Source: Planctomycetota bacterium
GTDB taxonomy: Bacteria; Planctomycetota; DG-23; JAZDKG01
DNA: 64,000 bases
NCBI GenBank assembly: GCA_043803205.1
Contig: JAZDKG010000044.1
Coordinates: 2,503 to 66,502 of the forward strand
Reading direction: 5' to 3'
Translations under genes and position numbers: made by a program
In this document: positions 3,998-36,234 of the stretch, piece after piece
Layout of the letters: each line of letters starts with the position of its first letter
Numbering within the stretch: position 1 is the stretch's first letter
Notes under the pieces: generated by a model
The model's input: the letters and a program-made list of their open reading frames with translations, nothing else
Told to the model about the DNA's origin: nothing
The model's database searches: none

Positions 3998-4968
3998 TTC
4001 GTCCTCCCGAGCTTCCCCCGGAGGCTTCGCAGCCAGAGCTGCGCGAGGATCTGAAAGAAGAGGGTGATGCAGAAGAGGATGAGGCCCAGCTCGATGAGCA
4101 CGCTGCGCGACAGGGGCTCGGCGATCGATTCGCCGAACTCGTTCGCGAGCGTCGAGGCGATGCTGTTCCCCGCCTCAAAGAGGCTCGCGGAAACCCGGTG
4201 CGAGTTTCCGATGACGAAGGTGACGGCCATCGTCTCACCGATGGCCCGCCCAAGACCGAGGAAACACGCGCCCAGAAGCCCCTGGATCGCGTACGGGAGG
4301 CTCACTTGGCGCGTTACCTCCCACGTGGTGGCGCCCAGCCCGTGCGCCGACTCCTTCACCACCGGAGGGACCATCGAGAGCACGTCGCGGGAGACGGCGC
4401 TCATGTAGGGGAGGATCATGACGGCGAGGATGATCCCGGCGGTGAGCATCCCGATCCCCATCGGCGGACCCTGGAAGAGCGGGAGGAAGCCGAGAGTCCT
4501 CCCAAGGCACGGCTGCACGTGTTGGCGCATGAAGTCGCTAAAGACGAAGAGCCCCCACATGCCGAAGATGATGCTCGGGACGGCCGCGAGGAGTTCGATC
4601 GCGACCCCGACGGGTCTGCCCAGAAGGGGATGCGCCAACTCCACGAGGAAGATGGCGATCCCCAGGCTCAGCGGCACGGCGAGGGCCATCGCGATGAGCG
4701 TGCTTGCGAGCGTTCCGAAGATGGAGCTTGCGGCGCCGTAGTCCTCCCGTACGGGGTTCCAGGCAGCGGACCAGAGGAAGGAGGCCCCGAAGCGCCGGAT
4801 GCTTTCGCGGGAATTCACGGCTAGTTGCCAGAAGATCGCGGCGACGACGGCGACGATCGCAAGAGCGCACGCCAGCACGAGCCAGCGGAAGAGCGGATCG
4901 CCGAGGTTGCGTTTTCTTGTGTCCTTCATTTCCGCATCCGCCGGCCTCGACGGGCGAGGCCCCCTCAC
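3994..4968 (-). CDS. pstC: Phosphate ABC transporter permease PstC
   Basis: Polytopic permease (…[24 protein letters not shown]…). The GTG at 4968 overlaps the pstS stop (GTGA). An alternative ATG at 4929 (MKDTRKRN…) is equally plausible. Confidence 0.85.
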
Positions 4969-20514: not shown

Positions 20515-22497
20515 ATGACAACGGACGCCAAGAAGGGCAAGTTCGGGGAACTCCTGGTACAGGCTGGGCTCGTTACGCAGGCCCAGCTCGATCAGGCGCT
20601 CCAGGTTCAGAAAGAGCAGGAGGACCGCCAGAGCATCGGGAGGATCTTGGTCGATCTGGGGTATCTGACACAGAGGAGACTGCGCGGGGCGGCGAAGAGG
20701 TTCGGGAAGCGCTTGCTCGTCGGGGAGCTTCTGGTGACGGAGGGGGCGATCACGCGCAAGCAATTGGAGAAAGCTCTGCGGGAGCATAAGGCGACCGGGC
20801 ACTCGTTGGGGAAGGTCCTCGTCGGCGCAGGCGTCGTGAGCGAGGATGACCTCGCTCGGGCGTTGGGCAGACAGCTCGATATGCCATATATGGTTCCGCA
20901 CGCCGGGATGGTTGACATGCAGGTGTTCACCCGCTTGCCGGAGCAATTCATCCGGAGCAACTCGGTGCTTCCCGTCGCGGAGAAGGACGGGGAGGTCACG
21001 GTGGTGGTGGCGGACCCCGTGGACGGCGGGCTCATCCAGAGACTGGAGAAGGTGCTGGGGGAGAACCTGCGTCTGACTACGTCCAGCAAGTCCCGCATCG
21101 ACAAGGTGATCGAGGAGTTGATGTTCCGGAGGGAACTGGGCATCGGCGCGCAGGGGATGCCGGAGGATGAGGAGGGGACGGCCTCCGTCAGCCTGTCGAT
21201 CGACAGCGTGTCGATGACGGGCGGACGCGGCGAGCGGGGCCACGAGAGCATCTTCGACGGGATCCTGCTGGACGCGGTGAAGAAAAAGGCGTCGGACATC
21301 CATTTCGAGCCCCAGCGGGACCGCGTGCGGGTCCGCTATCGCATCGACGGGATGCTCGTGGACGTGACGCGGGTCCCGCTTTCGCTGGCGGGCCCCTTTG
21401 TGCGACGCGCTAAGGCGCTGGCAAGGCTCAGCAGCTACGAGACCCGCAAGCAGCAGGAGGGGAGACTGTCGGTCGAGGTGGATGGAGAGCAGTTCGACCT
21501 GAGGGTTGGCACGTTTCCGTCGATCTTCGGCGAGACCATGGCGATCCATTGTTTCTCACGGGAGATCGGCAGGAGGAGGAGGCTGGACGACCTGGGGATG
21601 CACCCGGGGGTGCTGGCGACCTTCCGAGCTTCGGTCGAGCGCAGCCTCGGCGCGACGCTCTTTGTCGGACCGACGGGTTCGGGCAAGACGACGACCTTTT
21701 ATACGGTCCTGAGTCATCTAAACGACGGAACGCGGAAGATTATTTCTGTGGAGGCCCCGGTGGAGCTGACCCTGGAGGGGGTCGTCCAGCACAGCCTTCA
21801 GGAATACGAGCCGGCTGAAATGGTCGGGGGACTGCTGAGCGCGATGCAGCACGATCCGGACGTCATCGCGCTGGGCGCGATCGTGTCGGACGAGGTGGCG
21901 GAAAAGCTCCTCGAGGTGGCGATGATGGGACACAAGGTGTTCTCCACCATGCATGCGGAGGACGCTGTGAGCGCGCTCGTGCGGCTACGGAACCTGCGCG
22001 GCACCGGCTCGTTCCTCGCGTGCTGCACGATCGTCCTGGTGGCGCAGGTCCTCGCGCGCAGGACCTGCCGGCGCTGCGCCGAAGTCTACATCCCGTCCCC
22101 GAAACTCGTGAGCGAGTTCGAGGTCAAAGACGTGGATCTGGACGCAATCGATTTCCGCCGGGGGATCGGTTGCTCCGATTGCATGGGCACGGGCTTCCGG
22201 GGCAGGACCGCCATCTTCGAGGTGATGGAGGCCGGGGCGGAGATGCAGAAAGCCCTGCGCGAGGGGACAAACGTGCGGGAGATCCGACACGCGATGCGCA
22301 AGGGACCGAAGTTCGTCTCTCTGCGACAGGCGGGGTTCCTCAAGGCGGCTCAGGGACTGACAACCCTTGAAGAGGTGGCGCGGGTGATGGCGCCGGCGCG
22401 CGAGGAGGGTCTGGGCGGGGAGGCGCGTACCCTCGATGAGCTTTGCCGCTTGGCAAACGTCACCGTGGGACAGGGGTTCCGGGAAAGGAAGGGGTAG
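20515..22497 (+). CDS. Type II secretion / type IV pilus-family ATPase (GspE/PilB/MshE-like) with tandem MshEN/T2SSE_N motifs
   Basis: Walker A GPTGSGKTTT and Walker B/Asp box (PDVIALGAI). C-terminal tetracysteine module CRRCAEVY...CSDCMGTGFRGRTAIFEV. Four N-terminal 24-aa [RK]xGxxLVxxGxxxxxxLxxALxxQ-like motifs at residues 9-120. Confidence 0.85.
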   Translation: MTTDAKKGKFGELLVQAGLVTQAQLDQALQVQKEQEDRQSIGRILVDLGYLTQRRLRGAAKRFGKRLLVGELLVTEGAITRKQLEKALREHKATGHSLGKVLVGAGVVSEDDLARALGRQLDMPYMVPHAGMVDMQVFTRLPEQFIRSNSVLPVAEKDGEVTVVVADPVDGGLIQRLEKVLGENLRLTTSSKSRIDKVIEELMFRRELGIGAQGMPEDEEGTASVSLSIDSVSMTGGRGERGHESIFDGILLDAVKKKASDIHFEPQRDRVRVRYRIDGMLVDVTRVPLSLAGPFVRRAKALARLSSYETRKQQEGRLSVEVDGEQFDLRVGTFPSIFGETMAIHCFSREIGRRRRLDDLGMHPGVLATFRASVERSLGATLFVGPTGSGKTTTFYTVLSHLNDGTRKIISVEAPVELTLEGVVQHSLQEYEPAEMVGGLLSAMQHDPDVIALGAIVSDEVAEKLLEVAMMGHKVFSTMHAEDAVSALVRLRNLRGTGSFLACCTIVLVAQVLARRTCRRCAEVYIPSPKLVSEFEVKDVDLDAIDFRRGIGCSDCMGTGFRGRTAIFEVMEAGAEMQKALREGTNVREIRHAMRKGPKFVSLRQAGFLKAAQGLTTLEEVARVMAPAREEGLGGEARTLDELCRLANVTVGQGFRERKG

Positions 22498-22501
22498 AAC
22501 G

Positions 22502-25500
22502 GTGGGGAGAGCCCGAAGAAAAAAGGCGGAGCGACACCTCGCGGCCGGACAGTGGGAAGAGGCCGTCGCGCTGTACCGCAAAGACAAGGCTTGGGACGCC
22601 CTCGCCGACGCGCATGAGAAACGGGGCGAATACCTCGAGGCGGCGGAGGCCGCAAAGGAGGCGCGACAGAGCGAGAGGGCGGCGGAGCTCTACGAAAAGG
22701 CGGGGGCGTACCGTCAGGCCGCGGAGATCTGGATCTCCATGTCGCGGGGAGAGCGGGCGGCCGTCGCCCTCGAAAAGGCGAAGCACTTCGAAGCTGCGGC
22801 GGACGTCTACGCGCGGATCGGCAGGCCGGCACAGGCGGCCGCCATGCTGGCCAGCGCGGGAAAGCATGCGGAGGCGGGGAAGCTCTACGAGCAGGCGGCG
22901 GAATTCGCCAGCGCCCTCGAAATGTACGAGTTGGCGAATCAGCCGGAGCGCATGGCTGTGATGTTGGAGGGATTGAACGATTTCGAGGGGGCGGCCCGAG
23001 TGCAGCTTCGCATGGGCGAGAAAGGCAAGGCCGCCGAGCTTTTCGAGCGGGCGCAGCGACCCATCGAAGCGGCCCAGTGTTACCTCGAACTGGGGGAGTT
23101 TCGCAAGGCGGGTGAGCTTCTAGCGGGGGCGGAACATGTCCTGGCGGCCGCCGAGGCCTATGAAAAGGACGAGACGACTCTCGGACAGGCTGCGGAGCTT
23201 TTCCGGACCGTGCTGCGGGGAGAGGAAGCTTGGCGGCAAGAAGTGCAGGGGCCGGCCCTCTGCCTCGGCATGTCGGAGTGCGGCCGGTTCATCGGCGTGG
23301 GGGCGGCTCAGAAGTTGAGGATGTTCGACGAGGAGGGCGAGCTTCTCTGGTGCTTCGTTCCGACTTGGGGCGGAGAGCCGCGGTGCTTGGCCGTCTCGCC
23401 GGCGGGTCTTGTGGCGCTCGGGTGCGACGACGAGTATCTGTACCTCCTCACGACGGAAAAAAAACTCCTCTGGGCTCAGAAGCTCCCGGGAGAGGCGATG
23501 AAGGTGAGCATGGATGCCGAGGGCAAGGTGATCGCATGCGTCACCCGGGGAAACGAGCTCGTGTGTCTCAGCGGCGATGGCAATCGGAAGTGGAATCATC
23601 ATGAAGAGAGCATCATCTGGGACGTGTCGGTGGCGCGGGACGGCAAAATGATCGCTCTGGGTCTGGGGGACGGCCGGTGCGTGGTGATGACGGAGCGCGG
23701 CGAGAAGGTGGGGGAGTACCAGGCGGCCAAGTGGGTGCACAGCGTGTCCCTGGGGGACCGAGGGTCCTGTGTCGCGTTGGGGACGGGGATGCAGGGGGTG
23801 GAGCTTGTGGCCGGCGAGACGTGGCGACCGGTGTGGTCGGTGCAGGGGGAGAGCTTCGTTCACAACGTGGCTCTGACCGCGGATCGCAAGGTGCTGGCGG
23901 TGGCGGATGCGGAGGCGGTCCTGCGGGACGAGTCCGGGACGGTGATCTGGAGGTACGACGGGCAGGAGCGACTTCTGGGGGGATGCGTGGATGCGGCCTT
24001 GACGCGCGCCGCGTTTCGATGCGCGGGCAAGAAGGTCCTGCGCGTGAACGTGGGCGACTGCAGGGTGCAGGCGGCGCGGGACTTCGCGGGCGCCGGGAAA
24101 CAACGCGAGGCGGGAGAGCTGTACGAGGAAATGGGCGATCACGAGGCCGCGGCGGAGATGTTCAGCCAGGCCGGGGATTACGCGCGCGCCGGGCACAACA
24201 CGGAGAGCGCGGGACTCTCCCTCGAGGCGGCGGAACTGTACGAGCGGGCGGGTGAGTTCGAGAAGGCGGGGAAGCTCTTCGAGGGGCAGGGCGAGCTCGC
24301 GCGCGGGGCGGTGTGTTTCAAGAAGGCGGGAGAGCTTCTCAAAGCGGCGGAGCTCTACGAGCGCAGCGGCGACCTCGAGAAGGCCTGCGAGCTCTTCGAG
24401 CAGGGAAAAGAGCACGGGAAGGCTGGAGCGCTTTACCGGGCGCTCGGCGACAGGACGGGGGCCATCCGGGCGCTCTCGTGTCACGTGGAGGCGCATCCCG
24501 AGGACTGGGAGAGACGCTTCGAGCTGGGGACGCTTCTGGAGGCCGACGGACAGTACGACCTCGCTCTCGGACAGTTCCAGCAGACGGCGGGCATCGAAGA
24601 GTGCCGTAAGAGGGCGGTCGTGCACGTGGCGGGGTGCTTCATGGGGAAGGGGATGTACGAGATCGCCGTCGAGCGCTACAAGGCCGCCATCGAGGGGAGC
24701 GAGGCCGTCACGTGGGAAAACCGGGAGGTCTATTACGGGCTGGGCAGGGCCTACCACCTCGCGGGACACTACCCGGAAGCGAAGCGAATCTACGAGAGCA
24801 TCCTCGCGATCGACTACCGTTACAAGGATGTCGCCGAGCGCCTGGAGGACGTGCGAAAGCTGAGCTCCGTATTCGGGCAGTCGGCGGCCGCCTCGCAGAT
24901 GGGAAGCTACGCCAGCACGATGGTCGCGGATCCGGGCTTCCAGAACCTCTCGGCCGAGAAGAAGGAAAGGTACGTCCCGCTCCGCAAGCTGGGCGAAGGG
25001 GGCATGGGCACGGTCTACCTCGCCGAGGACAAGCGGCTCAATCGGAAAGTGGCCCTCAAGATGCTTGCCGCGGGGCTGCGTGCAGACGAGAAGATGCGGC
25101 TCCGGATCGTCCAGGAGGCCCAGCTCAGCGCGCAGGTCGTCCACCCGAACGTGGTCGCCGTCTTCGACGTGGGCGAAGAGCAGGGCTGCTCCTACGTGAG
25201 CATGGAATACGTGGAGGGCGACACCCTTCGCGACCTCCTCGAAGAGAAGGAAACTTACACCCCCGGCGAGTGCGTGGAGCTTCTCCTGCAGATCACGGGC
25301 GGACTTGCGTGCGCTCATGAGAAAGGCGTGTCCCACCGGGACATGAAGCCCGAAAACATCATGGTGACGAAGAACGGGACCGCAAAGATCATGGATTTCG
25401 GACTGGCGATCCTTGCCGGCGCGACGAGGCTCACCATGCCCGGCGGGGTCAGCGGGACTCCTCTCTACATGGCGCCTGAGCAGATCCGCGGGGAGTCCAA

Positions 25501-25765
25501 GCTCACCCCGGCCGTGGACGTGTACGCGGTGGGCTGCCTCGCGTATGAGCTTCTTGTGGGACGACCGCCCTTCGCGCAGGGGAACGTCGCGACGCAGCAC
25601 CTGCATCAGCCGCCCAAGAGTCTGAGGGAGCTGCGCCCCGAGGTGCCCGAGGCCCTGGAGGGAGTGATCCTCAAGTGCCTCGAGAAAGAGCCGGCGGACC
25701 GGTATGCAAACGGGGGAAGCCTCTACGCCGCCCTCCAGGAGGTGGCGAGAGGCTTGGGGGCATAG
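22502..25765 (+). CDS. Multidomain Ser/Thr protein kinase: 13-residue helical repeats - beta-propeller - 13-residue repeats - TPR - C-terminal Hanks kinase
   Basis: The GTG at 22502 lies 4 nt after the ATPase stop, behind AAGGAAGGGG; the ATG at 22436 would overlap the ATPase by 62 nt. Kinase motifs are GEGGMGTVY, VALK, HRDMKPENI, DFG and APE. No TM segment. Confidence 0.85.
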   Translation: MGRARRKKAERHLAAGQWEEAVALYRKDKAWDALADAHEKRGEYLEAAEAAKEARQSERAAELYEKAGAYRQAAEIWISMSRGERAAVALEKAKHFEAAADVYARIGRPAQAAAMLASAGKHAEAGKLYEQAAEFASALEMYELANQPERMAVMLEGLNDFEGAARVQLRMGEKGKAAELFERAQRPIEAAQCYLELGEFRKAGELLAGAEHVLAAAEAYEKDETTLGQAAELFRTVLRGEEAWRQEVQGPALCLGMSECGRFIGVGAAQKLRMFDEEGELLWCFVPTWGGEPRCLAVSPAGLVALGCDDEYLYLLTTEKKLLWAQKLPGEAMKVSMDAEGKVIACVTRGNELVCLSGDGNRKWNHHEESIIWDVSVARDGKMIALGLGDGRCVVMTERGEKVGEYQAAKWVHSVSLGDRGSCVALGTGMQGVELVAGETWRPVWSVQGESFVHNVALTADRKVLAVADAEAVLRDESGTVIWRYDGQERLLGGCVDAALTRAAFRCAGKKVLRVNVGDCRVQAARDFAGAGKQREAGELYEEMGDHEAAAEMFSQAGDYARAGHNTESAGLSLEAAELYERAGEFEKAGKLFEGQGELARGAVCFKKAGELLKAAELYERSGDLEKACELFEQGKEHGKAGALYRALGDRTGAIRALSCHVEAHPEDWERRFELGTLLEADGQYDLALGQFQQTAGIEECRKRAVVHVAGCFMGKGMYEIAVERYKAAIEGSEAVTWENREVYYGLGRAYHLAGHYPEAKRIYESILAIDYRYKDVAERLEDVRKLSSVFGQSAAASQMGSYASTMVADPGFQNLSAEKKERYVPLRKLGEGGMGTVYLAEDKRLNRKVALKMLAAGLRADEKMRLRIVQEAQLSAQVVHPNVVAVFDVGEEQGCSYVSMEYVEGDTLRDLLEEKETYTPGECVELLLQITGGLACAHEKGVSHRDMKPENIMVTKNGTAKIMDFGLAILAGATRLTMPGGVSGTPLYMAPEQIRGESKLTPAVDVYAVGCLAYELLVGRPPFAQGNVATQHLHQPPKSLRELRPEVPEALEGVILKCLEKEPADRYANGGSLYAALQEVARGLGA

Positions 25766-25822: not shown

Positions 25823-26221
25823 CTACTTGCCGAGGATCGCGCCGACCCTCCTTAGCAGCCGGTCGCTCTCCACGGGCTTTTCGAGGTAACCCGCGGGCTC
25901 GACGCCGTAGTACGAGCGCACGTCGGCCGCGGAGAAGCGCACGCCGAGCTTTTCCCCGACGCCCGTGAGAAAACACACGGGGATGCGCCGCAGGACCTCG
26001 TCCTGCACAAGCTCATTGAAGATCTCGAAACCGTTCTTCCCGGGCATCTGCACGTCCATGAGGATGAGGTCGGGTTTCTCCTTGCGGGCGGCGGCCAGTC
26101 CCGCGTCTCCGTTGGGCGCGCTCACGACGGTATAGCCGCCTGCTTCGAGCATGGCGGCGACGCCCTGAACGGCGTCCGGCTCATCGTCGACAACCAGGAT
26201 CTTCTTCGGTGCGGGTGGCAT
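25823..26221 (-). CDS. Stand-alone CheY-like response regulator (receiver only), copy 1
   Basis: MPPAPKKILVVDDEPD...DLILMDVQMPGKNG...LEKPV. 132 aa with an AAGGAG RBS, 29 nt downstream of the FHA-GAF kinase. Confidence 0.85.
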   Translation of the reverse strand: MPPAPKKILVVDDEPDAVQGVAAMLEAGGYTVVSAPNGDAGLAAARKEKPDLILMDVQMPGKNGFEIFNELVQDEVLRRIPVCFLTGVGEKLGVRFSAADVRSYYGVEPAGYLEKPVESDRLLRRVGAILGK

Positions 26222-26250
26222 TTCGGGGTCTCCTTTCTCTTGAACTACGC

Positions 26251-27891
26251 TTACTGCTCGTCCGAACTTTCCGGGGGAGTGGAGGCATCGGTCGGCGGCG
26301 CCAGCGGGAGGCGGAGGATAAAGGTGGTGCCGCGGCCGACCTCGGAGTCGACTTCGATCTCCCCGTGGTGTTCCCGGATGATTTTGTGGACGACCGGGAG
26401 CCCCAGGCCGGTTCCCTTGGCGCCTTTCGTCGAAAAGAAATCCTGGAACAGGCGGGCCTTGACCTCGGGGGACATGCCCGAGCCCGTGTCCTGGATCATG
26501 ACGGCGAAGCGGCCGGACGCGTTCGGCGCCGCCGTCCGCAGGCACACCTCGGAGGATGGAGTCTGCGCGCAGGCGTCCACAGCGTTGGAGACGAGGTTGA
26601 GGATGCAGCGGTAGACGGACACGGGATCGACGCTCGCCTGCGGCAGCGCGTCATCCAGGTCGTATCGGATCGTTGTGCCCTGGGAGGCGGCCTTCTCGCG
26701 GTACAGGTCGCCGACGGTGCGGATGAGGTCGTTGATGTCGGTGGCCTCATACCGCGGGACCCGCTGCTTCCCGTAGGACAGCATGTCCAGCACCAGGTCG
26801 CTGAGAAAGCCGCTGTTTCGCTTCGTGATATCCCATCCCTGGAGGATCTTGGCGCGGTCGTCCGTCTCGATCCCGCGGTCCACGATGAAGGACCCGCCCT
26901 TGATGCCGTTCAGGATGTTCTTGATGCAGTGGGCTAGGCGCGAGACGGCCTCCCCGATCGCGGCCATGCGCTGCGCGCGCAGCGCCTCCTGATGGAGCTT
27001 GGCGTTGCGCAGCGCTACGGCGAAGACGGCCGCAAGACACACGATGAGCTGCAGGTCATCCTTCTCGAAAGCGCGGCCGGGACGGCGTGTAGCGACGTAG
27101 ATCAAGGCCAGAACCTCGCCGTCGACGGCGGCCGGTGCGCAGAGGACGGAGGTGGTCGCTGTGCTCACGAGGCTCTGCGAGCCCTGGAAACGGGAGTCGT
27201 CCAGCGCGCAGGCGCTTAGGATCGCCTCCCGGGTGTCGCAGGCGTGCCGCAGAATGGTATTGGACGGAGCGAGATCCGCTCCCTCTGCGCCCTTTCGCGA
27301 CGCCACGATCGAGAAGCCCGTGTTCCCGACGTCGGGCGTAAGGATGAAAGCGCTGTCTGCTTGCGAGAAGGTCTTGAAAAGCTCGTTTAGGATCGCCTCG
27401 GACAGGGACTCCACGGTGAAGCCCCCGACCGCCGCGCGGCTGACGCTGTAGAGGACCTGCAGGCGTCGCCGCAGCGCGCCGACCGGGTCGCTGACGCCCG
27501 AGGCGCTGGAGAGATCGTCGGAGGCTCGCGTCGCGATGAGCGTCGCGGTATCCATGCGCAGGGAGGTGCGCGGCGCCTCGGGCGGACCGGCCGGGGCCTG
27601 ATCCTCGTCCACGAAGACGAGCGTGAACTGGTGGATCTTGATCGTATCACCTGGGGACAGGCGCGCCCGGCGGACCATCTTCCCGTTGAGGAAAGTGCCG
27701 TTGACGCTCTTCAGGTCTTCGAGATAGTAGCCGTCTTCTCCGGTGGTGATGCGGGCGTGACTGCTGGAGACAAACGGATGCTTCAACGGAATCTGGCTCT
27801 GCGGGCTGCGGCCGAGGACGTCGTTGCCGGTCAGACGGAAAAGCTCGTTCCGTGGGGCGCCGCCGTCGTTGATCAGTCGCAGTCCGGCCAT
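26251..27891 (-). CDS. Cytoplasmic FHA-GAF-histidine kinase
   Basis: Start MAGLRLIND at 27891. FHA motifs are VLGRSP...SSSHARI...NGTFLNG. The central region is GAF-like. H-box RLAHCIKNIL, N box NLVSNAVDA, and G boxes DTGSGM and GTGLGLPVV. No TM segment. Track ORF 26251..28701 is over-extended. Confidence 0.8.
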   Translation of the reverse strand: MAGLRLINDGGAPRNELFRLTGNDVLGRSPQSQIPLKHPFVSSSHARITTGEDGYYLEDLKSVNGTFLNGKMVRRARLSPGDTIKIHQFTLVFVDEDQAPAGPPEAPRTSLRMDTATLIATRASDDLSSASGVSDPVGALRRRLQVLYSVSRAAVGGFTVESLSEAILNELFKTFSQADSAFILTPDVGNTGFSIVASRKGAEGADLAPSNTILRHACDTREAILSACALDDSRFQGSQSLVSTATTSVLCAPAAVDGEVLALIYVATRRPGRAFEKDDLQLIVCLAAVFAVALRNAKLHQEALRAQRMAAIGEAVSRLAHCIKNILNGIKGGSFIVDRGIETDDRAKILQGWDITKRNSGFLSDLVLDMLSYGKQRVPRYEATDINDLIRTVGDLYREKAASQGTTIRYDLDDALPQASVDPVSVYRCILNLVSNAVDACAQTPSSEVCLRTAAPNASGRFAVMIQDTGSGMSPEVKARLFQDFFSTKGAKGTGLGLPVVHKIIREHHGEIEVDSEVGRGTTFILRLPLAPPTDASTPPESSDEQ

Positions 27892-27935
27892 GCGCGACTC
27901 CGATTGTGTTCCCGAAAAGATGCGCTCAGGAGTAC

Positions 27936-27963
27936 AGGCTACATGGTAGGATTCCAGGTCAAA
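27936..27963 (-). promoter_or_regulatory. Promoter candidate (TTTGAC-N16-TAGCCT) for the FHA-GAF kinase / RR operon
   Basis: Read on the minus strand; about 45 nt upstream of the ATG at 27891. Confidence 0.3.
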
Positions 27964-28012
27964 TGCGCAAGTGTTTTTCGTCGCCGTCGGACCTTGTCGG
28001 CCAAAGCGGGGC

Positions 28013-28040
28013 TTGCAAAAGGGCTCACCTGACATAGACT
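28013..28040 (+). promoter_or_regulatory. Promoter candidate (TTGCAA-N16-TAGACT) for ptb
   Basis: Hexamers at 28013-28018 and 28035-28040. The ptb ATG at 28093 has an AAGGAG RBS. Confidence 0.35.
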
Positions 28041-28092
28041 GGCGGCGCCTGCCGAGAGGAATTGCGCAGGGGCGGAACAAGGAGAAGACAAC

Positions 28093-29034
28093 ATGAAGAA
28101 CTTCGATACGCTGCTGGAGCTTGTCGAGAAACACCCCGTGCGGAAAGTCGCGGTCGCCGTGGGACAGGACCCGTCTGTGATCGCCGCCGTCGAGGAGGCT
28201 AGAAAGCGCAGCATCGCTGATGCGGTCCTCGTGGGGGACGAGGAGAAAATCCGGGAGGCGGCACACGATGTGGGGGCCAGCCTCGAGGGGACGAAGATCA
28301 CGCACGAAGCGGACCCCATCCATGCGGTTGCCGCCGCCGTCCGGCTCGTGTCGTCGGGAGAGGCGGATATCCTGATGAAGGGATACATCCACACGGATGA
28401 TTTCCTCCGCGGAGTCCTGAACAAGGAGTATGGGCTCCGGACGGGCTCGATCATGAGCCACGTGTTCATCGCCGAGCTCCGTCAGCCCGAGAAGCTCCTC
28501 TTCGTCACCGACGGGGCCATGAACATCGCCCCCGACCTTGAGCAGAAGTCGGCGATCCTTTTGAACGCCGTCTACCTGGCCAAGTCGTTCGGGGTGATGC
28601 AGCCGAAAGTCGCCGTCCTGGCGGCGGTCGAGTTGGTGAACCCGGCGATGCCCGCGACGATGGACGCCGCGGCGCTGGCAAAAATGGCGGACCGGGGACA
28701 ATACGTGCCCGCGTGCATGGTCGACGGCCCGTTCGCCCTCGACAACGCCGTCTCAGCCGCCGCCGCGCGGCACAAGAAGATTGGGGGACCGGTGGCCGGG
28801 GAGGCGGACATCTTGCTCGTCCCCACCATCGAGGCGGGGAACATGCTGGCGAAATCCCTCGTCTACTTCGGGGCGCGAAGGCTCATCGGTCTCCTCGTCG
28901 GCGCGAAGGCGCCGGTGGTGCTGACAAGCCGGGCGGACTCGATGGAATCAAAAATGCTCTCCATCGCAGGTGCGGTCCTGATGGTGAACATGAAGAGGGC
29001 GCTCGCGCTCAAGGTGGGCAAGGTCCATTACTGA
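28093..29034 (+). CDS. ptb: Phosphate butyryltransferase / phosphate acyltransferase (PTA_PTB family)
   Basis: 313 aa with PTA_PTB pattern (ADILMKGYIHTDDFLR..., FVTDGAMNIAPDLEQK, MVDGPFALDNAVS, ADILLVPTIEAGNMLAKS). There is no butyrate or acetate kinase next to it. Confidence 0.8.
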   Translation: MKNFDTLLELVEKHPVRKVAVAVGQDPSVIAAVEEARKRSIADAVLVGDEEKIREAAHDVGASLEGTKITHEADPIHAVAAAVRLVSSGEADILMKGYIHTDDFLRGVLNKEYGLRTGSIMSHVFIAELRQPEKLLFVTDGAMNIAPDLEQKSAILLNAVYLAKSFGVMQPKVAVLAAVELVNPAMPATMDAAALAKMADRGQYVPACMVDGPFALDNAVSAAAARHKKIGGPVAGEADILLVPTIEAGNMLAKSLVYFGARRLIGLLVGAKAPVVLTSRADSMESKMLSIAGAVLMVNMKRALALKVGKVHY

Positions 29035-29051
29035 GAGCGCTGGGGCGGCCT

Positions 29052-29450
29052 CTAGGTCCTGAAGACCTTCCGGACGGTAGCGAGAAGCAGCTCGGGGTCC
29101 ACGGGTTTCTCAACGCAGGCATCCGGTTGATCCCCGAGGAACCCCCCCACGTCGCTCGCCGAGAGATGAATCCCCGTCTTCTCTCCGATCCCCGTGACAA
29201 ACACGACCGGAACATTCCTGAGCGCAGGATCGGCGCGCAGTTCCGTGAAGACTTCGAAGCCGTTCTTCCCGGGCATCTGGACGTCAAGAAGGATCAGATC
29301 GGGCTGGAGCTTTCGGGCGGCGGCCAAGCCTGCCTCCCCGTCCCGGGCGCTGGCGACGGCGTAGCCGCCCGCTTCGAGGACGGCGGCGGTCCCCTTTACA
29401 GCGTCGGGTTCGTCGTCGATGACAAGGATCCTCTTGGGGGCATCGGGCAT
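29052..29450 (-). CDS. Stand-alone CheY-like response regulator (receiver only), copy 2 (paralogue of 25823..26221)
   Basis: MPDAPKRILVIDDEPD...DLILLDVQMPGKNG...VEKPV. Same 132-aa length as copy 1 and alignable to it without gaps. Confidence 0.85.
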   Translation of the reverse strand: MPDAPKRILVIDDEPDAVKGTAAVLEAGGYAVASARDGEAGLAAARKLQPDLILLDVQMPGKNGFEVFTELRADPALRNVPVVFVTGIGEKTGIHLSASDVGGFLGDQPDACVEKPVDPELLLATVRKVFRT

Positions 29451-29556: not shown

Positions 29557-32500
29557 TCAGGGGGCGCGACGGCCGAGGCGGAATTCCTGGAGCGCGCAGT
29601 AGAGGACGGGGGTGACGAACATGGCGAGGAGCTCGACTGTCATGCCGCTGACGATCGGGATGGCCATGGGAATCATGACATCCGCGCCTTTGCCGCTCGA
29701 GGTGAGGACGGGGAGCAGCGCGAGGACTGTGGTGGCGGTGGTCATGAAGCAGGGACGCACGCGCTTTCGGGCCCCTTCGAGAACGAAGGAGCGCACCTCG
29801 GCGATGGAGGAGGGGGCGCGGGCGGCAAAGATCTGGTTCAAGTAGGTCGTGATGACGACGGCGTCGTCGGTGGCAAGCCCGAAGAGGGCGATGAAACCGA
29901 CCCAGACGGAAACGCTCAGGTTGTACTGACGGAAGTGGAAGAGCTCCCGGAGGTTGTGGCCGAGAAGGCTGATGTCGAGGAACCAGGGCTGCCCGACGAG
30001 CCACAGCCCGATGAAGCCCCCGGCCCAGATGAAGGCGACCTGCGCGAAGATGAGGAGCGTGACGGGGGTGGAACGGAACTGGAAGTAGAGGATGAGGAAG
30101 ATGATGAAGAGGCTTGCGGGGAGGAGCACGGAGAAGCGTTTCTGGAAGTTGAGCTGGTTCTGGTAGCTTCCGGCGAAGGCGTAGTGGGTGCCCGGAGGCA
30201 GGACGAGTTCGCCCGAGGCGATCTTGGCCTCCAAGTAGCGCTGGGCTTCCTCGACGACGTCCACTTCGGCGTAGCCTGGGCGTTTGTCGAAGAGGACGTA
30301 GGAGACGAGGAAGGTGTCCTCGCTCTTGATCTCCTGCGGGCCCGGGACGTAGCGGATGGAGGCGAGCTGAAGGAGGGGGATCTGGGCGCCCTCGGAGGAG
30401 GGGACCAAGATGCGGCCGAGGGCCTCGACGGAGTCGCGCAGCTCGCGCTGGTAGCGCACGCGGACGCCGTAACGCTCGCGTCCCTCGACCGTGGTGGTGG
30501 CGCGGATGCCTCCCACCGCGATCTCGATGACGTCCTGCACGTCGCGGATGTTGACCTTGTAGCGGGCGATTCGTTCGCGGTCGATGTCGATCTCGAGGTA
30601 GGGTTTGCCGACGACGCGGTCGGGGATGACGGCGTCGGCCTCGACGCTGGGGACGTCCTTGAGGAAGCGGGCGATGTCGTAGCCGACGCGTTCGATAGCT
30701 TCGAGGCTTTGGCCTCGGACCTTGACGCCCATGGGGGCGCGCATGCCGGACTGGAGCATGACGATACGGGCGGCGATGGGCTGGAGTCGGGGGGCGGAGG
30801 TGGAGCCCGGGACGTCGGCGACTCGGACGATCTCGCTCCAGATGTCGTCGGGGGAGCGGATGTGGTCGCGCCAGAGACGCGGACGCTTCCCGGTCTGGGG
30901 GTCGGGAGGCCCGTACTCGTCCTTGTAGGTGACGAGGGTCTCGATCATGGAGATGGGGGCGGGGTCCAGCGCGGTCTCGGCGCGGCCGATCTTGCCGACG
31001 ACGGTGTCGACCTCGGGGATGGCGCGGATCGCGCGGTCCTGTTTCTGGAGGATGTCGAGGGCTTGGCCGAGCGAGGCGTGGGGCATGACGGTGGGCATGA
31101 AGAGGTAGGAGCCCTCGTCGAGAGAGGGCATGAACTCGCGCCCGATCCCCGGGAAGGCGTGCTGGCCGGCGACCCACAGCGGGACGGAGCGCGTTTTTTC
31201 CTGGGAAATGCCGACTTTCTGGAGACCGGCTGGGATCCAAGCAAAGACGCGGGCAAACCCGAGCCACACGACGAGGCCGAAGACGATGACGACGGCGGGG
31301 ATGGAGAGGAAGACGACCTTGTGGCGCAGGAAGGCGGGGAGGATGCGGGGATATAGGTCCACGATGATGAAGCGGAGGCTGCACCAGGAGAGGTTGATGA
31401 CCGACACGAAGACGAGGTTCTTGAGTAGGCTCGTGCCGAGCCCCAGGGGCATCCAGTGGAGTGTCAGGAGCGCCAGGACGAAGAACGCGGCCAAGACGGA
31501 CGTGAAGAAGGGCATCCTTCTGAGGAGCTTCTTGGGAAGACGGGGTTCGAGCAGGAGGTAGCAGGCGGCGAGGACGATGGGGAGGCCGGCCCAGAGGGAG
31601 ATGCGCCAGCCCGCGAAGAGGCCGACGAGGAAGAGGCCCGCGTAGGCGACAGTCCTTGCCTTGACCGGCATCCTGCGGCGCTTGAAGAGGATGTGGGCGA
31701 AGGCGGGGAGCACCGTGAGGGCGGCGAAGACGGAGGCGAAGAGGGCGAAGGTCTTCGTGTAGGCTAGGGGCTTGAAGAGTTTTCCCTCGGGGCCGGTGAG
31801 GGCGAAGATGGGGAGGAACGATACGAGGGTGGTGGCGATGGCGGTGACTACGGCGCCGCCCACCTCGCTGGCGGCGCGGTAGATGACATCGAGGGGGTCC
31901 TCGTCGGGATGGGCTTCGTTGAAGTGGCGGACGATGTTCTCGCAGAGGATGATCCCCATGTCCACCATGGAGCCGATGGCGATGGCGATCCCGCCAAGAC
32001 TCATGAGGTTCGAGTCGACCTTGAAGATCTTCATCAGGATGAAGGCCGTGAAGATGGCGAGTGGGAGGTTGGCGCTGATGAGGATGTTGGAACGGAAGTG
32101 CGCAAGAAGCAGGAACACGACGAAACACGTGATGAGGATTTCCTCGACGAGGGCGTTCTTCAGGGTGCCGAGGGTCTGCTTGATGAGATCTGTCCGGTCG
32201 TAGAAGGGGACGATCTGAACTTGCGAGGAGGAGCCGTCGGGGAGGGTCTTGCGGGGGAGGCCGGGCTGGATCTCATTGATCTTTTCCTTGAGGCGGGCGA
32301 TCACGGCGAGAGGGTTTTCCCCGTGACGGACGACGACGCTTGCGCCGACGACCTCCGTGCCTTCCTTGTCGAGAGCTCCGCGGCGCAGCGCCGGACCGAG
32401 GGAGATGGTTGCGACGTTCTTCACGTAGATGGGGACGTTCTCGACGGTCTTGAGGAGGATGTTCTCGACGTCCGAGAGTTTCTTCAGGAACCCTTTGCCG

Positions 32501-33261
32501 CGGATGATGTATTCGACGCCGTTCCACTCGATTGTCTCGGCGCCGACGTCGATGTTGGCGCGCTGGACGGCCAGGAAGACGTCCTGAAGCATGACGCCGT
32601 GGGCGCGCATGGCGTCCGGGTTGACGTCGATCTGGTATTCCTTGACGTAGCCTCCGATGGAGGCGACTTCGCTGACCCCCTCCGTGGATTGGAGCGCGTA
32701 GCGGATGTACCAGTCCTGGATGGAGCGCAGTTCCCGGAGGTCGAAGCCTTTCCCCTCGACGGTGTACCAGAAGATCTGGCCGAGGGCGGTGGCGTCGGGC
32801 CCGAGGGCGGGGACGACGCCCTCCGGGAGCTGTTGCTGGGCGACGTTAAGACGTTCGAGGAGGCGGGAGCGGGCCCAGTAAAAGTCGACGTCATCGTGGA
32901 AGATGACGTAGACGGTGGAGAAGCCGAACATGGAGTAACTGCGGACCGTCTTGACGCCGGGGATCCCCTGGAGGGACACGGTGAGGGGGTAAGTGACCTG
33001 GTCCTCCACGTCCTGTGGAGAGCGGCCCGGCCAGTCGGTGAACACGATCTGCTGGTTCTCACCGATGTCGGGGATGGCGTCCACGGGAATGGGTTCGCGG
33101 GGGAAGCCCTTCCAAGGGGGTTGGAAGGGCATGACGTAAAGACCCCAGCCGATGAGGAAGGCGAGGAGGAGGAAGACGACGAGCTTGTTCTCGAGGCAGA
33201 AGCGGATGGTGCGGTTGACGACGCCTCTTATCTCGGGACGTTCGGCGGCGGGGGCGTTCAC
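29557..33261 (-). CDS. Heavy-metal-efflux RND transporter, CusA/CzcA family, enlarged (1234 aa)
   Basis: CusA/CzcA-like N-terminus (…VDAIPDIGENQQIVFTDWPGRSPQDVEDQVTYPL…) and RND repeats. The GTG start overlaps the adaptor stop (GTGA). Extra hydrophobic block at about residues 527-705. Confidence 0.85.
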   Translation of the reverse strand: MNAPAAERPEIRGVVNRTIRFCLENKLVVFLLLAFLIGWGLYVMPFQPPWKGFPREPIPVDAIPDIGENQQIVFTDWPGRSPQDVEDQVTYPLTVSLQGIPGVKTVRSYSMFGFSTVYVIFHDDVDFYWARSRLLERLNVAQQQLPEGVVPALGPDATALGQIFWYTVEGKGFDLRELRSIQDWYIRYALQSTEGVSEVASIGGYVKEYQIDVNPDAMRAHGVMLQDVFLAVQRANIDVGAETIEWNGVEYIIRGKGFLKKLSDVENILLKTVENVPIYVKNVATISLGPALRRGALDKEGTEVVGASVVVRHGENPLAVIARLKEKINEIQPGLPRKTLPDGSSSQVQIVPFYDRTDLIKQTLGTLKNALVEEILITCFVVFLLLAHFRSNILISANLPLAIFTAFILMKIFKVDSNLMSLGGIAIAIGSMVDMGIILCENIVRHFNEAHPDEDPLDVIYRAASEVGGAVVTAIATTLVSFLPIFALTGPEGKLFKPLAYTKTFALFASVFAALTVLPAFAHILFKRRRMPVKARTVAYAGLFLVGLFAGWRISLWAGLPIVLAACYLLLEPRLPKKLLRRMPFFTSVLAAFFVLALLTLHWMPLGLGTSLLKNLVFVSVINLSWCSLRFIIVDLYPRILPAFLRHKVVFLSIPAVVIVFGLVVWLGFARVFAWIPAGLQKVGISQEKTRSVPLWVAGQHAFPGIGREFMPSLDEGSYLFMPTVMPHASLGQALDILQKQDRAIRAIPEVDTVVGKIGRAETALDPAPISMIETLVTYKDEYGPPDPQTGKRPRLWRDHIRSPDDIWSEIVRVADVPGSTSAPRLQPIAARIVMLQSGMRAPMGVKVRGQSLEAIERVGYDIARFLKDVPSVEADAVIPDRVVGKPYLEIDIDRERIARYKVNIRDVQDVIEIAVGGIRATTTVEGRERYGVRVRYQRELRDSVEALGRILVPSSEGAQIPLLQLASIRYVPGPQEIKSEDTFLVSYVLFDKRPGYAEVDVVEEAQRYLEAKIASGELVLPPGTHYAFAGSYQNQLNFQKRFSVLLPASLFIIFLILYFQFRSTPVTLLIFAQVAFIWAGGFIGLWLVGQPWFLDISLLGHNLRELFHFRQYNLSVSVWVGFIALFGLATDDAVVITTYLNQIFAARAPSSIAEVRSFVLEGARKRVRPCFMTTATTVLALLPVLTSSGKGADVMIPMAIPIVSGMTVELLAMFVTPVLYCALQEFRLGRRAP

Positions 33262-34799
33262 TGGTGGGCTCCGTGACCGCCGACGGAGGGCGTCTGGCCC
33301 GCATGGCCGGCATGGGGAGAGGGAGGCGGACCTCCTCCGGGTCCCATCATGCTGGGCTTGGCCTGGATCTGGAGGGAAGCGTCGATCTTGAAGTTGCCCC
33401 GGGTCACGACACGCTCGCCTTCCTTGAGCCCTGATAGGACGAGGTAATAGTCCCCCGCTCGGGGTCCAAGGGTGATTTCGCGCCCGACGTAGGAGACGCC
33501 CTTATCGGAGCGCTCTTCGACATAGACGACGGCGCGCTCGCCCGTAAGAAGGGGCGCCGTGATCGGGATGCTCGGGACCATGCGGGCTGGAGCCTCGGGG
33601 GGGCCGAAGCCGAGGGAGGCGGTATCGACGAGGGGCATTTCGCAGATGTCGCAGGCGCCGGGGGAGTCTTTCACGATCTCGGGGTGCATGGGGCACATCC
33701 ATTTCCCGGCGAGGTCCGGCTCACGGACGCGACCCGCCTCATCGAGGGCGACCTCGATGCGGGCGCGCACGAACATGCCGGGCTTGAGACGCTCGCCGGG
33801 ATTGGGGATGTTGACGCGCACCTTGACGGTGCGGGTCATCTCGTCGAGGACGGGCTGGATGAACGCGACCCGCCCGTGGAACGTTTCGCCCGGGAACGCG
33901 TCGCTCTCGAACGTCACGGTCTGGCCGTACCGGACCCAGGGGATGTCAATCTCGTAGGCGTCCAGCAAGGCCCAGACAGCAGAGAGGTCGGCGATGGTGA
34001 AGAGACGGTCGCCCGCCTGAACGTATTGTCCCTCGAACGCCTCGCGCGCGATGACGGTCCCGCCGATCGGCGCGTAGATGGTCATGTGGTCATCGGATCG
34101 ACCCGTGGATTGAAGGGCCTCGATCTGTCCGGGGAGGATGCCCCAGAGCTCGAGCTTCTTTCTGGTAGCCTCCTTGACCGAGAGAGCGTCGGCGGCCTCA
34201 TCGGGGTTGTTTGCTTGGACGGCGTTCCGCCAGCGGCGGAAGGCGATGAGGAACTCCTCCTGTGCGGTCCGGAGGTCGGGGCTGTAAACGTACGTGAGAT
34301 GATCGCCCTTTGCCACGCGCACGCCGACGTAGTTCACGTAGAGCCTGTCGATACGCCCCGGGACCCAGGCGGCGACGTGCGAGAGACGCGTTTCGTCGAC
34401 GTCGATCTTGCCGACCATGCGCACGGTGACGGAGAGGGGACGGTATTCCACGGGGGAGGTTTCGATTTCCGCGAGGGCTCGTTCGGCGTCGGAAAGGACA
34501 AGCACAGGGCCCTCGGTCTTTCCGCCCAGTTCGGTCTCATAGACTGGGACGAGATCCATGAAGCAGATGGGACACTTCCCTTCCCGGGGCTGGTTGATCT
34601 GGGGGTGCATGGAGCAGGTCCAGTAGCGGATGTGGCGATCGGAGGCGGTCTCGGCGGGCCGGCTGGCCGGGGCGGGCGCTGCGCTGCGCAGAGCGAGGCG
34701 ATGCCCTGCGACAATAGCGGCGACAAGGAGCGCTGCGAGCAGGATCAGACGGAGATAGCGAGGACGCTTAGCGGATGCAGGGGAAGGGGGGGCGTCCAT
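33258..34799 (-). CDS. Periplasmic adaptor (MFP/CusB-like) with two Cys4 heavy-metal-binding modules and a His-rich tail
   Basis: Start MDAPPSPASAKRPRYLRLILLAALL at 34799. Cys4 modules are CSMHPQI...CPICFMDL and CPMHPEI...CDICEMPL. Barrel-sandwich/lipoyl pattern. C-terminal PHAGHAGQTPSVGGHGAHQ. Confidence 0.8.
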   Translation of the reverse strand: MDAPPSPASAKRPRYLRLILLAALLVAAIVAGHRLALRSAAPAPASRPAETASDRHIRYWTCSMHPQINQPREGKCPICFMDLVPVYETELGGKTEGPVLVLSDAERALAEIETSPVEYRPLSVTVRMVGKIDVDETRLSHVAAWVPGRIDRLYVNYVGVRVAKGDHLTYVYSPDLRTAQEEFLIAFRRWRNAVQANNPDEAADALSVKEATRKKLELWGILPGQIEALQSTGRSDDHMTIYAPIGGTVIAREAFEGQYVQAGDRLFTIADLSAVWALLDAYEIDIPWVRYGQTVTFESDAFPGETFHGRVAFIQPVLDEMTRTVKVRVNIPNPGERLKPGMFVRARIEVALDEAGRVREPDLAGKWMCPMHPEIVKDSPGACDICEMPLVDTASLGFGPPEAPARMVPSIPITAPLLTGERAVVYVEERSDKGVSYVGREITLGPRAGDYYLVLSGLKEGERVVTRGNFKIDASLQIQAKPSMMGPGGGPPPSPHAGHAGQTPSVGGHGAHQ

Positions 34800-34803
34800 G
34801 GGG

Positions 34804-36234
34804 TCAGCTCCTTTGCGCGGGCGCGGGGGGCGCCTCCTCGGAGGAAGGTTGCTCTTGCTGCGGGGGCAGGATGGCGGGGACGGCTTGGGGCCAGCGGCCC
34901 AGGATGAGGAGGGAGATTTCGGCAAGGGTCATCTCGCGGCGGCCCGCGGCGGTGGCGTGCTCGATGTGATAGTTGAGGAACGTGCGCTCCGCGTCCAAAA
35001 GATCCAGGAAGGATGAGATACCCGCGGTATATCCGGCTCGGGCGGATTCGAGCGACGCCTGCGCCTTCGGCAAGAGCTGGTCGCGGTACAGACGCACGCC
35101 TCGGTCGGCCTCGCGCCAGGAGAAGGTCATTTCGGCGAACTGGATGGCGAGATTGAGTTCCTCGGCGGAGAGCCGCGCGCGGGCGGAGTCGAGGTCGGAG
35201 CGTCCACGGGCGATCTCGGCGGCGATCTTGTCGCGCCAGATCGGAAGGGTGACGCCGACGGAGGGCATGAGCGGGACGGGAGTCCCCGTTGCGCCAAGGC
35301 CGAGGCCCAAGGAGAAGTCGGGGACGGCGGTCTTGCGGGCGAGCTGGTAGAGGGCGACAGCTTCGAGGACCTCGGCGCGCATCCTGTTGAGTTGGGGGTT
35401 GCGGGCGAATGCCGTCTCCAGGAGGGAGTCCTCGGTGAGATCGCCGGGCGCGGCCTCGAGGCGGACGATGAACGGAGGGAGGTCGTGAGCGGGCGCAAGC
35501 CCCAGGGCGGACCGGAGGCGCGCTTCGAGAGGCCGCTGCGAGTCCTCGAGGTTCGCGAGGCGATTGCGGATCTCGTCGCGCTCCATCTGTGCGCGGAGGA
35601 CGTCCTGCTGCGTGACGGCGCCGACGGAAAGACGCTCGCGGGCGAGCCTTTCCAGCTCGTCGAGGAGAGCGAGGATTTCGCGGGTGCGGCGGATCTCTTC
35701 CTCGAGGACCCACATCTGATAGTACGCCTGTTTCACGCGGAGCGCGGTCGCGAGGAGCTCGTTTTCGAAGCTGGCGCGTTTCGCGAGCGCCTGGGCGTAG
35801 GCGGCGTCGGCGCGCAGCGAGAGCTTCCCAGGCCCGGGCCACATGGCCCCCGGCGAGGTCATGAGAGAGGGGGTGAGGGAGGCGAGGCCGCGCATTACCT
35901 CGACGTTGAGGGAGAGCATGGGGTCCGGGAGGGAACGGGCGGTGGTGATGGTTTCGACGGCGGCCTGCCAGTCATAGAACGTGGCTTCGACGCTCGGATT
36001 GTTAAGAAGGGCGTATTCGATGAGGTCGCGGAGGCTGGAGTCGGCGGAGAGGGCGGGCAGGGCCGCTGGCGTGCGAGTCGGCGGACGATAGACGGCCCTA
36101 GCGGTCTCGAGATCCTTGCGCGCCGCCTTTTCCTCCCGCGTGGCGATGCCCGCGCATCCGACAAGGAAGAGCAGCGCAAGAAGTGAGAAGAGACAAAGAT
36201 CCCGTCGGCGCACCTCCGCTATCCTTTGCCGCAT
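34804..36234 (-). CDS. Outer-membrane efflux lipoprotein (TolC/NodT/CusC family)
   Basis: Start MRQRIAEV... with lipobox LFLVGCAG, behind GGAGG. Two OEP repeats of long helices. It ends 4 nt before the adaptor start. The track start at 36288 lacks an RBS. Confidence 0.8.
   Translation of the reverse strand: MRQRIAEVRRRDLCLFSLLALLFLVGCAGIATREEKAARKDLETARAVYRPPTRTPAALPALSADSSLRDLIEYALLNNPSVEATFYDWQAAVETITTARSLPDPMLSLNVEVMRGLASLTPSLMTSPGAMWPGPGKLSLRADAAYAQALAKRASFENELLATALRVKQAYYQMWVLEEEIRRTREILALLDELERLARERLSVGAVTQQDVLRAQMERDEIRNRLANLEDSQRPLEARLRSALGLAPAHDLPPFIVRLEAAPGDLTEDSLLETAFARNPQLNRMRAEVLEAVALYQLARKTAVPDFSLGLGLGATGTPVPLMPSVGVTLPIWRDKIAAEIARGRSDLDSARARLSAEELNLAIQFAEMTFSWREADRGVRLYRDQLLPKAQASLESARAGYTAGISSFLDLLDAERTFLNYHIEHATAAGRREMTLAEISLLILGRWPQAVPAILPPQQEQPSSEEAPPAPAQRS

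Follow-up and report, generated by a model that had tools for sequence, protein, structure and literature searches.

Acetyl phosphate is documented as an in vivo phosphodonor for a few regulators, most clearly for C. jejuni BumR, for which acetyl phosphate and carbamoyl phosphate are both bona fide donors in vivo (PMC12469816). In the BumSR system, the product of a phosphotransacylase can charge the receiver aspartate and so report carbon flux, and a sensor in the cytoplasm tunes the phosphorylated level from the opposite side; the donor comes from a housekeeping pta or from carAB, both unlinked to the system, and BumR binds DNA (PMC12469816). Butyryl phosphate has been proposed as a donor of Spo0A in C. 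acetobutylicum (10.1101/106666, citing Zhao et al. 2005). In neither the BumR nor the Spo0A case is the phosphotransacylase gene kept beside the receiver. The present work concerns a planctomycete locus in which a phosphate butyryltransferase gene (ptb) lies between genes for two single-domain response regulators (RR), RR1 and RR2, and next to the gene for a histidine kinase (HK) with FHA and GAF domains. Full-text literature searches turned up no ptb/pta-receiver gene pair. With BumSR this locus would share an acyl phosphate that charges the receiver and a cytoplasmic sensor; unlike BumSR, it has a third, surplus Ptb that is kept beside a single-domain receiver and its FHA-GAF kinase in many lineages. 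The C. acetobutylicum Ptb-Buk case shares the enzyme family and the idea of a Ptb product as phosphodonor or signal for a receiver. Here there is no buk, the receiver stands alone, and the link is gene adjacency, which is not reported for Clostridium.

The stretch of DNA analysed (the window) comprises 64,000 nucleotides of contig JAZDKG010000044.1 (positions 2,503 to 66,502, forward strand) from a Planctomycetota bacterium, assembly GCA_043803205.1. The source is a metagenome-assembled genome (MAG) of 4.4 Mb that is 96% complete, the window lies on its contig C44, and G+C content is about 65% across the region. In the comparison set, L numbers are loci or contigs, G numbers are genomes, and C numbers are contigs. 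The module consists of the following features.

25823..26221, minus strand: RR1, a 132-aa single-domain receiver (by translation; Response_reg, 78.2 bits), 29 nt downstream of the kinase gene

26251..27891, minus strand: FHA-GAF histidine kinase, 546 aa (Pfam FHA, GAF and HATPase_c)

27892..28092, no strand: divergent spacer of 201 nt between the kinase operon and ptb, as read from the sequence, with AGGAG 8 nt ahead of the ptb ATG

28093..29034, plus strand: ptb, a phosphate butyryltransferase homologue of 313 aa (PF01515, 172 bits), with no adjoining acyl kinase gene

29052..29450, minus strand: RR2, a 132-aa single-domain receiver (by translation; Response_reg, 77.7 bits), convergent on ptb across a 17-nt gap

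By their spacing, RR1 and the kinase gene form one operon. The arrangement of ptb, divergent from the kinase operon and convergent on RR2, is as a first-pass annotation of this DNA had described it. The kinase start is the Met that opens the FHA domain, and an 816-aa minus-strand open reading frame (ORF) overlapping ptb was dismissed as a high-GC artefact. No membrane domain was detected in RR1, RR2, the kinase or Ptb (transmembrane segments were not scanned), and all four proteins appear cytoplasmic.

Conserved gene adjacency is the main result. The class of the source genome has 12 species representatives, and 11 reference genomes were compared, with Ptb orthologues 57-64% identical to the window enzyme in those of the same class. 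The impression of no recurrence given by these 11 genomes was overturned by closer metagenomic relatives. A ptb-seeded scan of metagenome contigs gave 80 loci with 55-84% Ptb identity, and a receiver of the RR1/RR2 family stands beside ptb in 17 of them. Type A loci (L045, L049, L050, L051, L052, and L102; Ptb 78-84% identical) have ptb and RR on the same strand with a gap of 28-34 nt, and no kinase was found within 5 kb. Type B loci (L070-L079 and L081; Ptb 64-67%) have the receiver gene facing ptb convergently, downstream of an FHA-GAF kinase gene, whose product is 36-39% identical to the window kinase over its full length; the RR-ptb distance is 28-224 nt in eight of these contigs and 2.4-3.9 kb in three. 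Three gene orders are thus seen: receiver behind ptb (ptb>RR), receiver convergent on ptb with a kinase gene upstream (ptb>< RR<HK), and receiver convergent alone (ptb><RR). The linked loci of the metagenome and genome scans form 14 Ptb clusters at 95% identity, which is a lower bound on the number of lineages, and the window is extra. The first-pass annotation had allowed that the placement might be peculiar to this genome. Besides the window, no fewer than 14 distinct Ptb lineages show it, in three orientations and with flanks that are otherwise unrelated, despite the 11 class-level reference genomes showing ptb without RR or HK nearby, so the hypothesis built on it does not fall on grounds of uniqueness.

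Identity across the linked loci spans 64-84% for Ptb and 42-63% for RR. Over this range the ptb-RR linkage persists through inversion, movement of the kinase to either side, and full turnover of the other flanks. In addition, ptb occurs at about 20% of family RR loci, compared to about 0.1% expected for any one specific gene within two positions (an estimate from about 4,000 genes). Because the linkage survives inversion, kinase relocation, and flank turnover, functional coupling of this two-component system to the acyl-phosphate node is well supported. In the Ptb tree, the type B loci form a clade in which 9/9 are RR-linked (support 100), and a 10-row clade unites type A loci and the window with a few loci that lack the link.

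The receiver family itself is broader than its association with ptb. An independent scan of species genomes seeded with the RR alignment gave 22 family members (42-57% identity) from Planctomycetota, Chloroflexota, Latescibacterota, Lentisphaerota, and Spirochaetota. An HK gene adjoins 13 of the 22, and ptb adjoins four, from three distinct lineages. When all flanking ORFs were clustered, the only recurrent receiver neighbours were the kinase (24 loci), Ptb (10), Ser/Thr kinases (eight), and a common oxidoreductase type (four). The main partner of the receiver family is the kinase family.

Judged by its matches, the window enzyme truly belongs to the Ptb branch within PTA_PTB. It exceeds the PF01515 cut-off of 24 bits by a wide margin and aligns along its whole length with 7VG9, a phosphate butyryltransferase of known structure (residues 2-298, E=4e-84), and it falls slightly under the equivalog cut-offs (TIGR02706, 388.4 vs 410.5; NF004472, 393.9 vs 399). 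The earlier description of ptb as an orphan is borne out. The window has no Acetate_kinase-family gene and no buk partner for ptb, and the sole Acetate_kinase-family gene of the genome is on contig C211, directly after a pta. Since the genome encodes three PTA_PTB enzymes (the window Ptb and the products of pta genes on C211 and C116) and one acyl kinase, the window Ptb is surplus to the pta-ack pair. Candidate acyl-CoA sources in the genome are one acyl-CoA dehydrogenase-like gene and three 2-oxoacid:ferredoxin oxidoreductase-type genes. Among relatives, ack adjoins ptb in G024 and L050 only; in L050, a type A locus, the order is a Ser/Thr kinase gene (minus strand), ptb>RR>ack (plus strand), and pta (minus strand). 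The first-pass annotation also gave ptb a promoter-like site of its own. The sequence TTGCAA-16-TAGACT is present in the kinase/ptb spacer, but it is weak (8/12 positions matching), and a consensus promoter scan called no site there.

RR1 and RR2 contain Response_reg (PF00072) alone, far above the cut-off of 30.2 bits. They were said to be equal in length and alignable without gaps, and BLASTP agrees (80/126 identical, 63%, 0 gaps, E=1e-57). Each is the closest paralogue of the other in the genome; the next receiver, on C186, is 43% identical. Third codon positions of the two genes are only 45% identical, which indicates that the duplication is old and not a recent gene conversion. D12, D13, D56, T86, and K115 are present in both, giving a complete acceptor pocket. 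D56, T86, and K115 are invariant in a 16-sequence alignment of the family, and all aligned receivers retain the acidic pair as well. The AlphaFold model of RR2, built from this alignment, has a (beta/alpha)5 fold with a predicted local distance difference test (pLDDT) score of 82. Identity between the copies is 77% over residues 1-70 and 42% over residues 71-132. By element it is 10/13 in alpha1, which is near-identical between them, 7/7 in the beta3-alpha3 loop, 3/8 in alpha4b, 1/4 in beta5, and 3/14 in alpha5. Mapped on the model, RR1 and RR2 differ mainly on the alpha4-beta5-alpha5 output face, where the first-pass annotation had placed most of the divergence.

In receivers, alpha1 is the helix that docks on kinases. 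In CheY, 22 residues span the interval that matches T86-K115. This receiver family has 29 over the same interval, and the seven-residue insertion splits alpha4 into two short helices (motif EKTG(V/I)xFS, within alignment residues 87-110). The insertion has the lowest confidence in the model (pLDDT about 59), and with its EKTG(V/I)xFS-like motif it is common to the RR family and to a sister family that includes the C186 paralogue. The aromatic switch position, 112, three residues ahead of the Lys, is Tyr in RR1 and Cys in RR2; among the other 15 aligned members it is Tyr or Phe in 14 and His in one (L052). Position 96 is Phe in RR1, as is near-invariant in the family, and Leu in RR2. The Tyr-to-Cys change corresponds to Y102C of PhoB, which is found in a constitutively active D53A/Y102C form (2JBA entry title), and this is a lead only. 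The closest solved structures are PleD REC1, RR468, DivK, CheY, and PhoB; because these relatives are generic, no functional subfamily can be named. The predicted fold, a (beta/alpha)5 receiver whose active site is complete, resembles the stand-alone receivers CheY, DivK, RR468, and Spo0F, which work through protein partners (template modelling (TM) score of 0.8), and it differs in the split alpha4 and, for RR2, in the Cys at the aromatic switch.

Phylogenetic analysis bears on how the two receivers arose. A 48-row maximum-likelihood tree unites ptb-linked with HK-linked receivers in a single clade (93/90) apart from the sister family with the C186 paralogue, and the two contexts interleave inside this clade. 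RR1 and RR2 are sisters with support of 99/98, so they arose by a lineage-specific duplication and do not stand for two old lineages, one kinase-fed and one Ptb-fed. An assignment of RR2 as the type A orthologue and RR1 as the kinase-linked orthologue could not be settled in a 26-row tree and was rejected in the 48-row tree. Accordingly, the first-pass suggestion that one receiver is fed by the kinase and the other by Ptb is not supported as a statement about distinct old lineages: the two are sisters with the same pocket and near-identical alpha1 helices, and the genome has one cognate kinase. The simplest history for the window starts from a type-B-like ancestor (ptb>< RR<HK), in which RR was duplicated and the kinase and one copy moved across ptb. 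In genome G041, ptb>RR and FHA-GAF-HK>RR are on separate contigs, with receivers from different sub-clades; since this genome has both arrangements, the two-receiver design recurs. With one kinase of the cognate family in the window genome, RR1 and RR2 may both be served by the same kinase.

The window kinase has a HATPase_c domain (91 bits) with intact N, G1, F, and G2 boxes, which are kept in the 36-39% identical orthologues. No Pfam HisKA match was found in it, and one orthologue gave a sub-threshold match at 19.9 bits. Its H-box, LAHCIKN, lies near residue 330 and has Cys at H+1. The motif AHC(I/V)KN is kept in about 25 orthologues from five phyla (L070-L078, L125-L144, and L205-L212), in which H+1 is Cys (rarely Tyr), not Glu or Asp, and the Asn at H+4 is kept. 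The window kinase is the only one with the H-box of the family in its genome. Orthologues in Planctomycetota and Lentisphaerota have the FHA-GAF-HK architecture, and four examined orthologues are GAF-HK without FHA (one from a Chloroflexota genome, one from a Latescibacterota genome, and Planctomycetota L036, from G008, and L127). The FHA domain probably lets the kinase read a Ser/Thr kinase, and the GAF domain a small ligand. As a separate observation, the Cys beside the phospho-histidine could act as a switch that responds to redox state or acylation. A paralogue of the FHA-GAF module, 69% identical, is joined to an FGE-sulfatase domain in place of a kinase core (G000 C151:26567-28369; L033:6568-8370); its gene is followed by a 1761-aa ORF without a Pfam match.

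Genes for Ser/Thr kinases are frequent neighbours of the module. In Myxococcus xanthus, the FHA-domain histidine kinases EspA and EspC work with Ser/Thr kinases. The window resembles this system in having FHA on a histidine kinase near a Ser/Thr kinase gene, which suggests a relay from phospho-threonine to His/Asp. It differs in that the kinase is FHA-GAF with no PAS and no fused receiver, its H-box is AHC(I/V)KN, and the link to a metabolic enzyme is new. The NCBIfam models for EspA and EspC (NF052573/NF052574) match the ATPase region of the kinase far under their cut-offs (107 vs 1400). The neighbour in the window is as follows.

22436..25765, plus strand: Ser/Thr kinase of 1109 aa with a repeat/beta-propeller region (Pkinase, 186 bits, residues 847-1090), convergent on RR1

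This 1109-aa protein is a candidate source of phospho-threonine for the FHA domain. Ser/Thr kinase genes of other architectures flank ptb, RR, or HK in 12 of the 20 listed ptb-RR loci, from about eight distinct lineages, and in L210 and L215 (G044) one directly follows the FHA-GAF kinase gene. In type A loci, ptb>RR is followed by a gene for a 288-aa protein with a Ser/Thr kinase domain only (L129:6307-7173, L132:3467-4333, and L045:5186-6052). Elsewhere the kinase domain is N-terminal or the protein is this 288-aa form, so these are not orthologues of the window protein; the window Ser/Thr kinase was rejected as a conserved partner, and only the gene class recurs. The recurring neighbours fit a phospho-threonine input through FHA.

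Upstream of RR2 are metal efflux genes.

29557..34925, minus strand: cusA and cusB, CusA/CusB-type metal efflux (TIGR00914, 810 bits; HlyD_D23, 248 bits), upstream of RR2

RR2 is 106 nt downstream of cusA, and the spacer between them has a promoter-like TTGCCT-16-TATCAT. Membership of RR2 in a CusBA efflux operon was rejected because this site sits between cusA and RR2, and the finding of no CusA/CusB match at any related ptb or RR locus also speaks against it. The cus genes are neighbours outside the receiver/kinase/ptb module.

PduL is a phosphotransacylase non-homologous to Ptb. At L127, in Planctomycetota MAG M_DeepCast_400m_m2_048, HK>RR is followed by a gene (2229-4646, plus strand) for an 805-aa fusion of cNMP-binding, acetate-kinase, and PduL domains. 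Such a protein would be a cyclic-nucleotide-gated acyl-CoA-to-ATP enzyme. Of 400 Planctomycetota genomes sampled, about 16 have cNMP/Ack/PduL in fused or adjacent form (including L229-L244). Around the approximately 17 cNMP-Ack(-PduL) loci of the 400 genomes, no RR or HK was found within 1.5 kb except at L127 and an FHA-domain gene at L237, and no pta or PduL was found near RR-family loci beyond L050 and L127. A general Ack-PduL/receiver link was therefore rejected, and L127 is a single suggestive instance. The FHA-domain gene (L237:1119-1436, G017:C177) is about 540 nt upstream of a cNMP-binding/acetate-kinase gene and is a second hint of an FHA/acyl-phosphate link.

Four explanations of the ptb-receiver linkage were weighed as mutually exclusive, and a fifth, looser one overlaps the favoured reading. 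With somewhat less than even confidence, we favour a reading in which the FHA-GAF kinase, the single-domain receivers, and Ptb would form one signalling-metabolic module. Ptb would interconvert acyl-CoA and acyl-phosphate, and the acyl-phosphate would be a physiological phosphodonor of the receiver family. Receiver phosphorylation would then combine the kinase/phosphatase state of the FHA-GAF kinase with acyl-CoA/acyl-phosphate flux. After the duplication, RR1 would have been kept in the kinase operon and RR2 at ptb, with loss of the aromatic switch residue in RR2. Several observations agree with this. Phosphorylation by acyl-phosphate is established chemistry for receivers generally. Operons of ptb>RR(>ack) exist without a nearby kinase. 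The window Ptb, surplus to pta-ack, has no kinase partner of its own, and duplication into a kinase-side and a Ptb-side copy happened twice.

Other observations weigh against Ptb as the donor source. The sequence data fit either direction of the signal, from acyl-phosphate to receiver or from receiver to Ptb. All ATP-binding boxes of the kinase are kept, so the protein probably is a genuine kinase and the receivers need no acyl-phosphate donor; similarly, given sister receivers with near-identical alpha1 and one cognate-type kinase, RR2 need not be kinase-independent. Around ptb in same-class reference genomes there are no genes for RR, HK, Ser/Thr kinases, or Cus proteins at distances of up to 8 kb, where contigs permit, and none of the seven reference-genome Ptb loci (six from the same class and one from another class) has RR or HK neighbours. 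Their neighbours vary by family (MgtE, lyase-like, and hydrolase genes), and ptb follows ack in the more distant G024. No RR accompanies ptb at about 45 distinct loci with sufficient flank, and most receiver-family members sit with a kinase and no ptb. Class relative G008 (91% complete) has GAF-HK>RR (L036, G008:C572) and no PTA_PTB gene was detected in it, so the kinase-receiver pair can exist without Ptb. Finally, L127 is one of about 17 cNMP-Ack-PduL loci, and an Ack-PduL fusion would favour channelling over release of acyl-phosphate.

The reverse direction is possible and, in our judgement, rather unlikely: the FHA-GAF kinase would phosphorylate the receiver, which would bind Ptb (or Ack-PduL) and alter its activity. 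Substrate-level phosphorylation or the activation of short-chain acids would then answer to signals from a Ser/Thr kinase and a GAF ligand, and RR1 and RR2 would be a branched pair or phosphate sink on one kinase, as the conserved alpha1 and the one cognate-type kinase of the genome would allow. Single-domain receivers, which lack an output domain, act by partner binding; the closest solved relatives are DivK, RR468, CheY, and PleD REC, and Ptb is the sole recurrent non-signalling neighbour of the receiver family. Type B loci and L127 put the receiver in a kinase operon beside the enzyme, giving a complete input-to-output chain, and the cNMP-binding domain of the L127 enzyme shows this node to be under regulation in Planctomycetota. 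However, we know of no precedent for receiver control of a phosphotransacylase, and literature searches turned up no receiver that regulates one. The alpha4-beta5-alpha5 face is also conserved in family members without ptb at the locus or in the genome, so Ptb cannot be the only partner, and type A loci have no kinase within 5 kb. For both directions, most HK>RR pairs have no nearby ptb and many Ptb genes have no nearby RR.

It is unlikely that there is no direct link at all and that the adjacency is inherited synteny or shared transcription in one group of sediment Planctomycetota, with Ptb an ordinary fermentation enzyme served by a distant ack. The 7/7 reference loci, with MgtE, lyase-like, or hydrolase genes beside ptb, or ack in G024, and the roughly 45 distinct Ptb loci without RR would be expected under this explanation. 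Moreover, the linked cases are confined to two sub-clades of one 31-row Ptb clade, so the independent origins may number as few as one or two. It does not account well for linkage that outlasts inversion, kinase relocation, and turnover of all other flanks, for the estimated enrichment of ptb at RR-family loci, or for acetate-kinase genes twice found beside RR (L050 and L127).

More doubtful still is the looser proposal that Ptb (Ack-PduL in one lineage) would be a dedicated phosphodonor synthase, the Cys-H-box sensor mainly a signal-controlled phosphatase, and RR1 and RR2 a pair that splits the two inputs. HisKA kinases, as Willett and Kirby are said to have reported in 2012, need an acidic H+1 residue for autokinase activity and H+4 for phosphatase activity. 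HisKA_2/HWE kinases are active without an acidic H+1. A fully BumSR-style system, in which the H+1 Cys would turn the FHA-GAF sensor chiefly into a phosphatase and acyl-phosphate from Ptb would be the obligatory donor, is improbable: H+1 is Cys (rarely Tyr) with H+4 Asn kept in all of the roughly 25 orthologues, which could mean a phosphatase-biased sensor like BumS, and sensor-phosphatase systems relying on acetyl or carbamoyl phosphate exist (PMC12469816, PMC11796366), but the N, G1, F, and G2 boxes are intact across the 36-39% identical orthologues, most HK>RR pairs of the family have no nearby ptb, and the low weight follows from the resemblance of H-x-[IV]-K-N to the H-box of HisKA_2/HWE kinases, for which an acidic H+1 is dispensable.

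It has been argued for decades, from a few genetic cases that involve housekeeping pta-ackA, whether two-component signalling has evolved to take acyl phosphates as physiological inputs or whether they are only laboratory donors and cross-talk. A receiver family kept beside a phosphotransacylase across rearrangements, and near its own kinase, is a natural system for testing acyl-phosphate input. If Ptb is a dedicated phosphodonor synthase, the locus would represent a genetically hard-wired metabolic input to His-Asp signalling, through acyl-phosphate made next door and not only through ATP by way of the kinase. If the reverse direction is true, a stand-alone receiver would here, for the first time, place a substrate-level-phosphorylation enzyme under two-component control. 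In either direction, the finding would give an annotation to an otherwise orphan ptb and to an output-less receiver family of Planctomycetota that are widespread in anoxic sediment.

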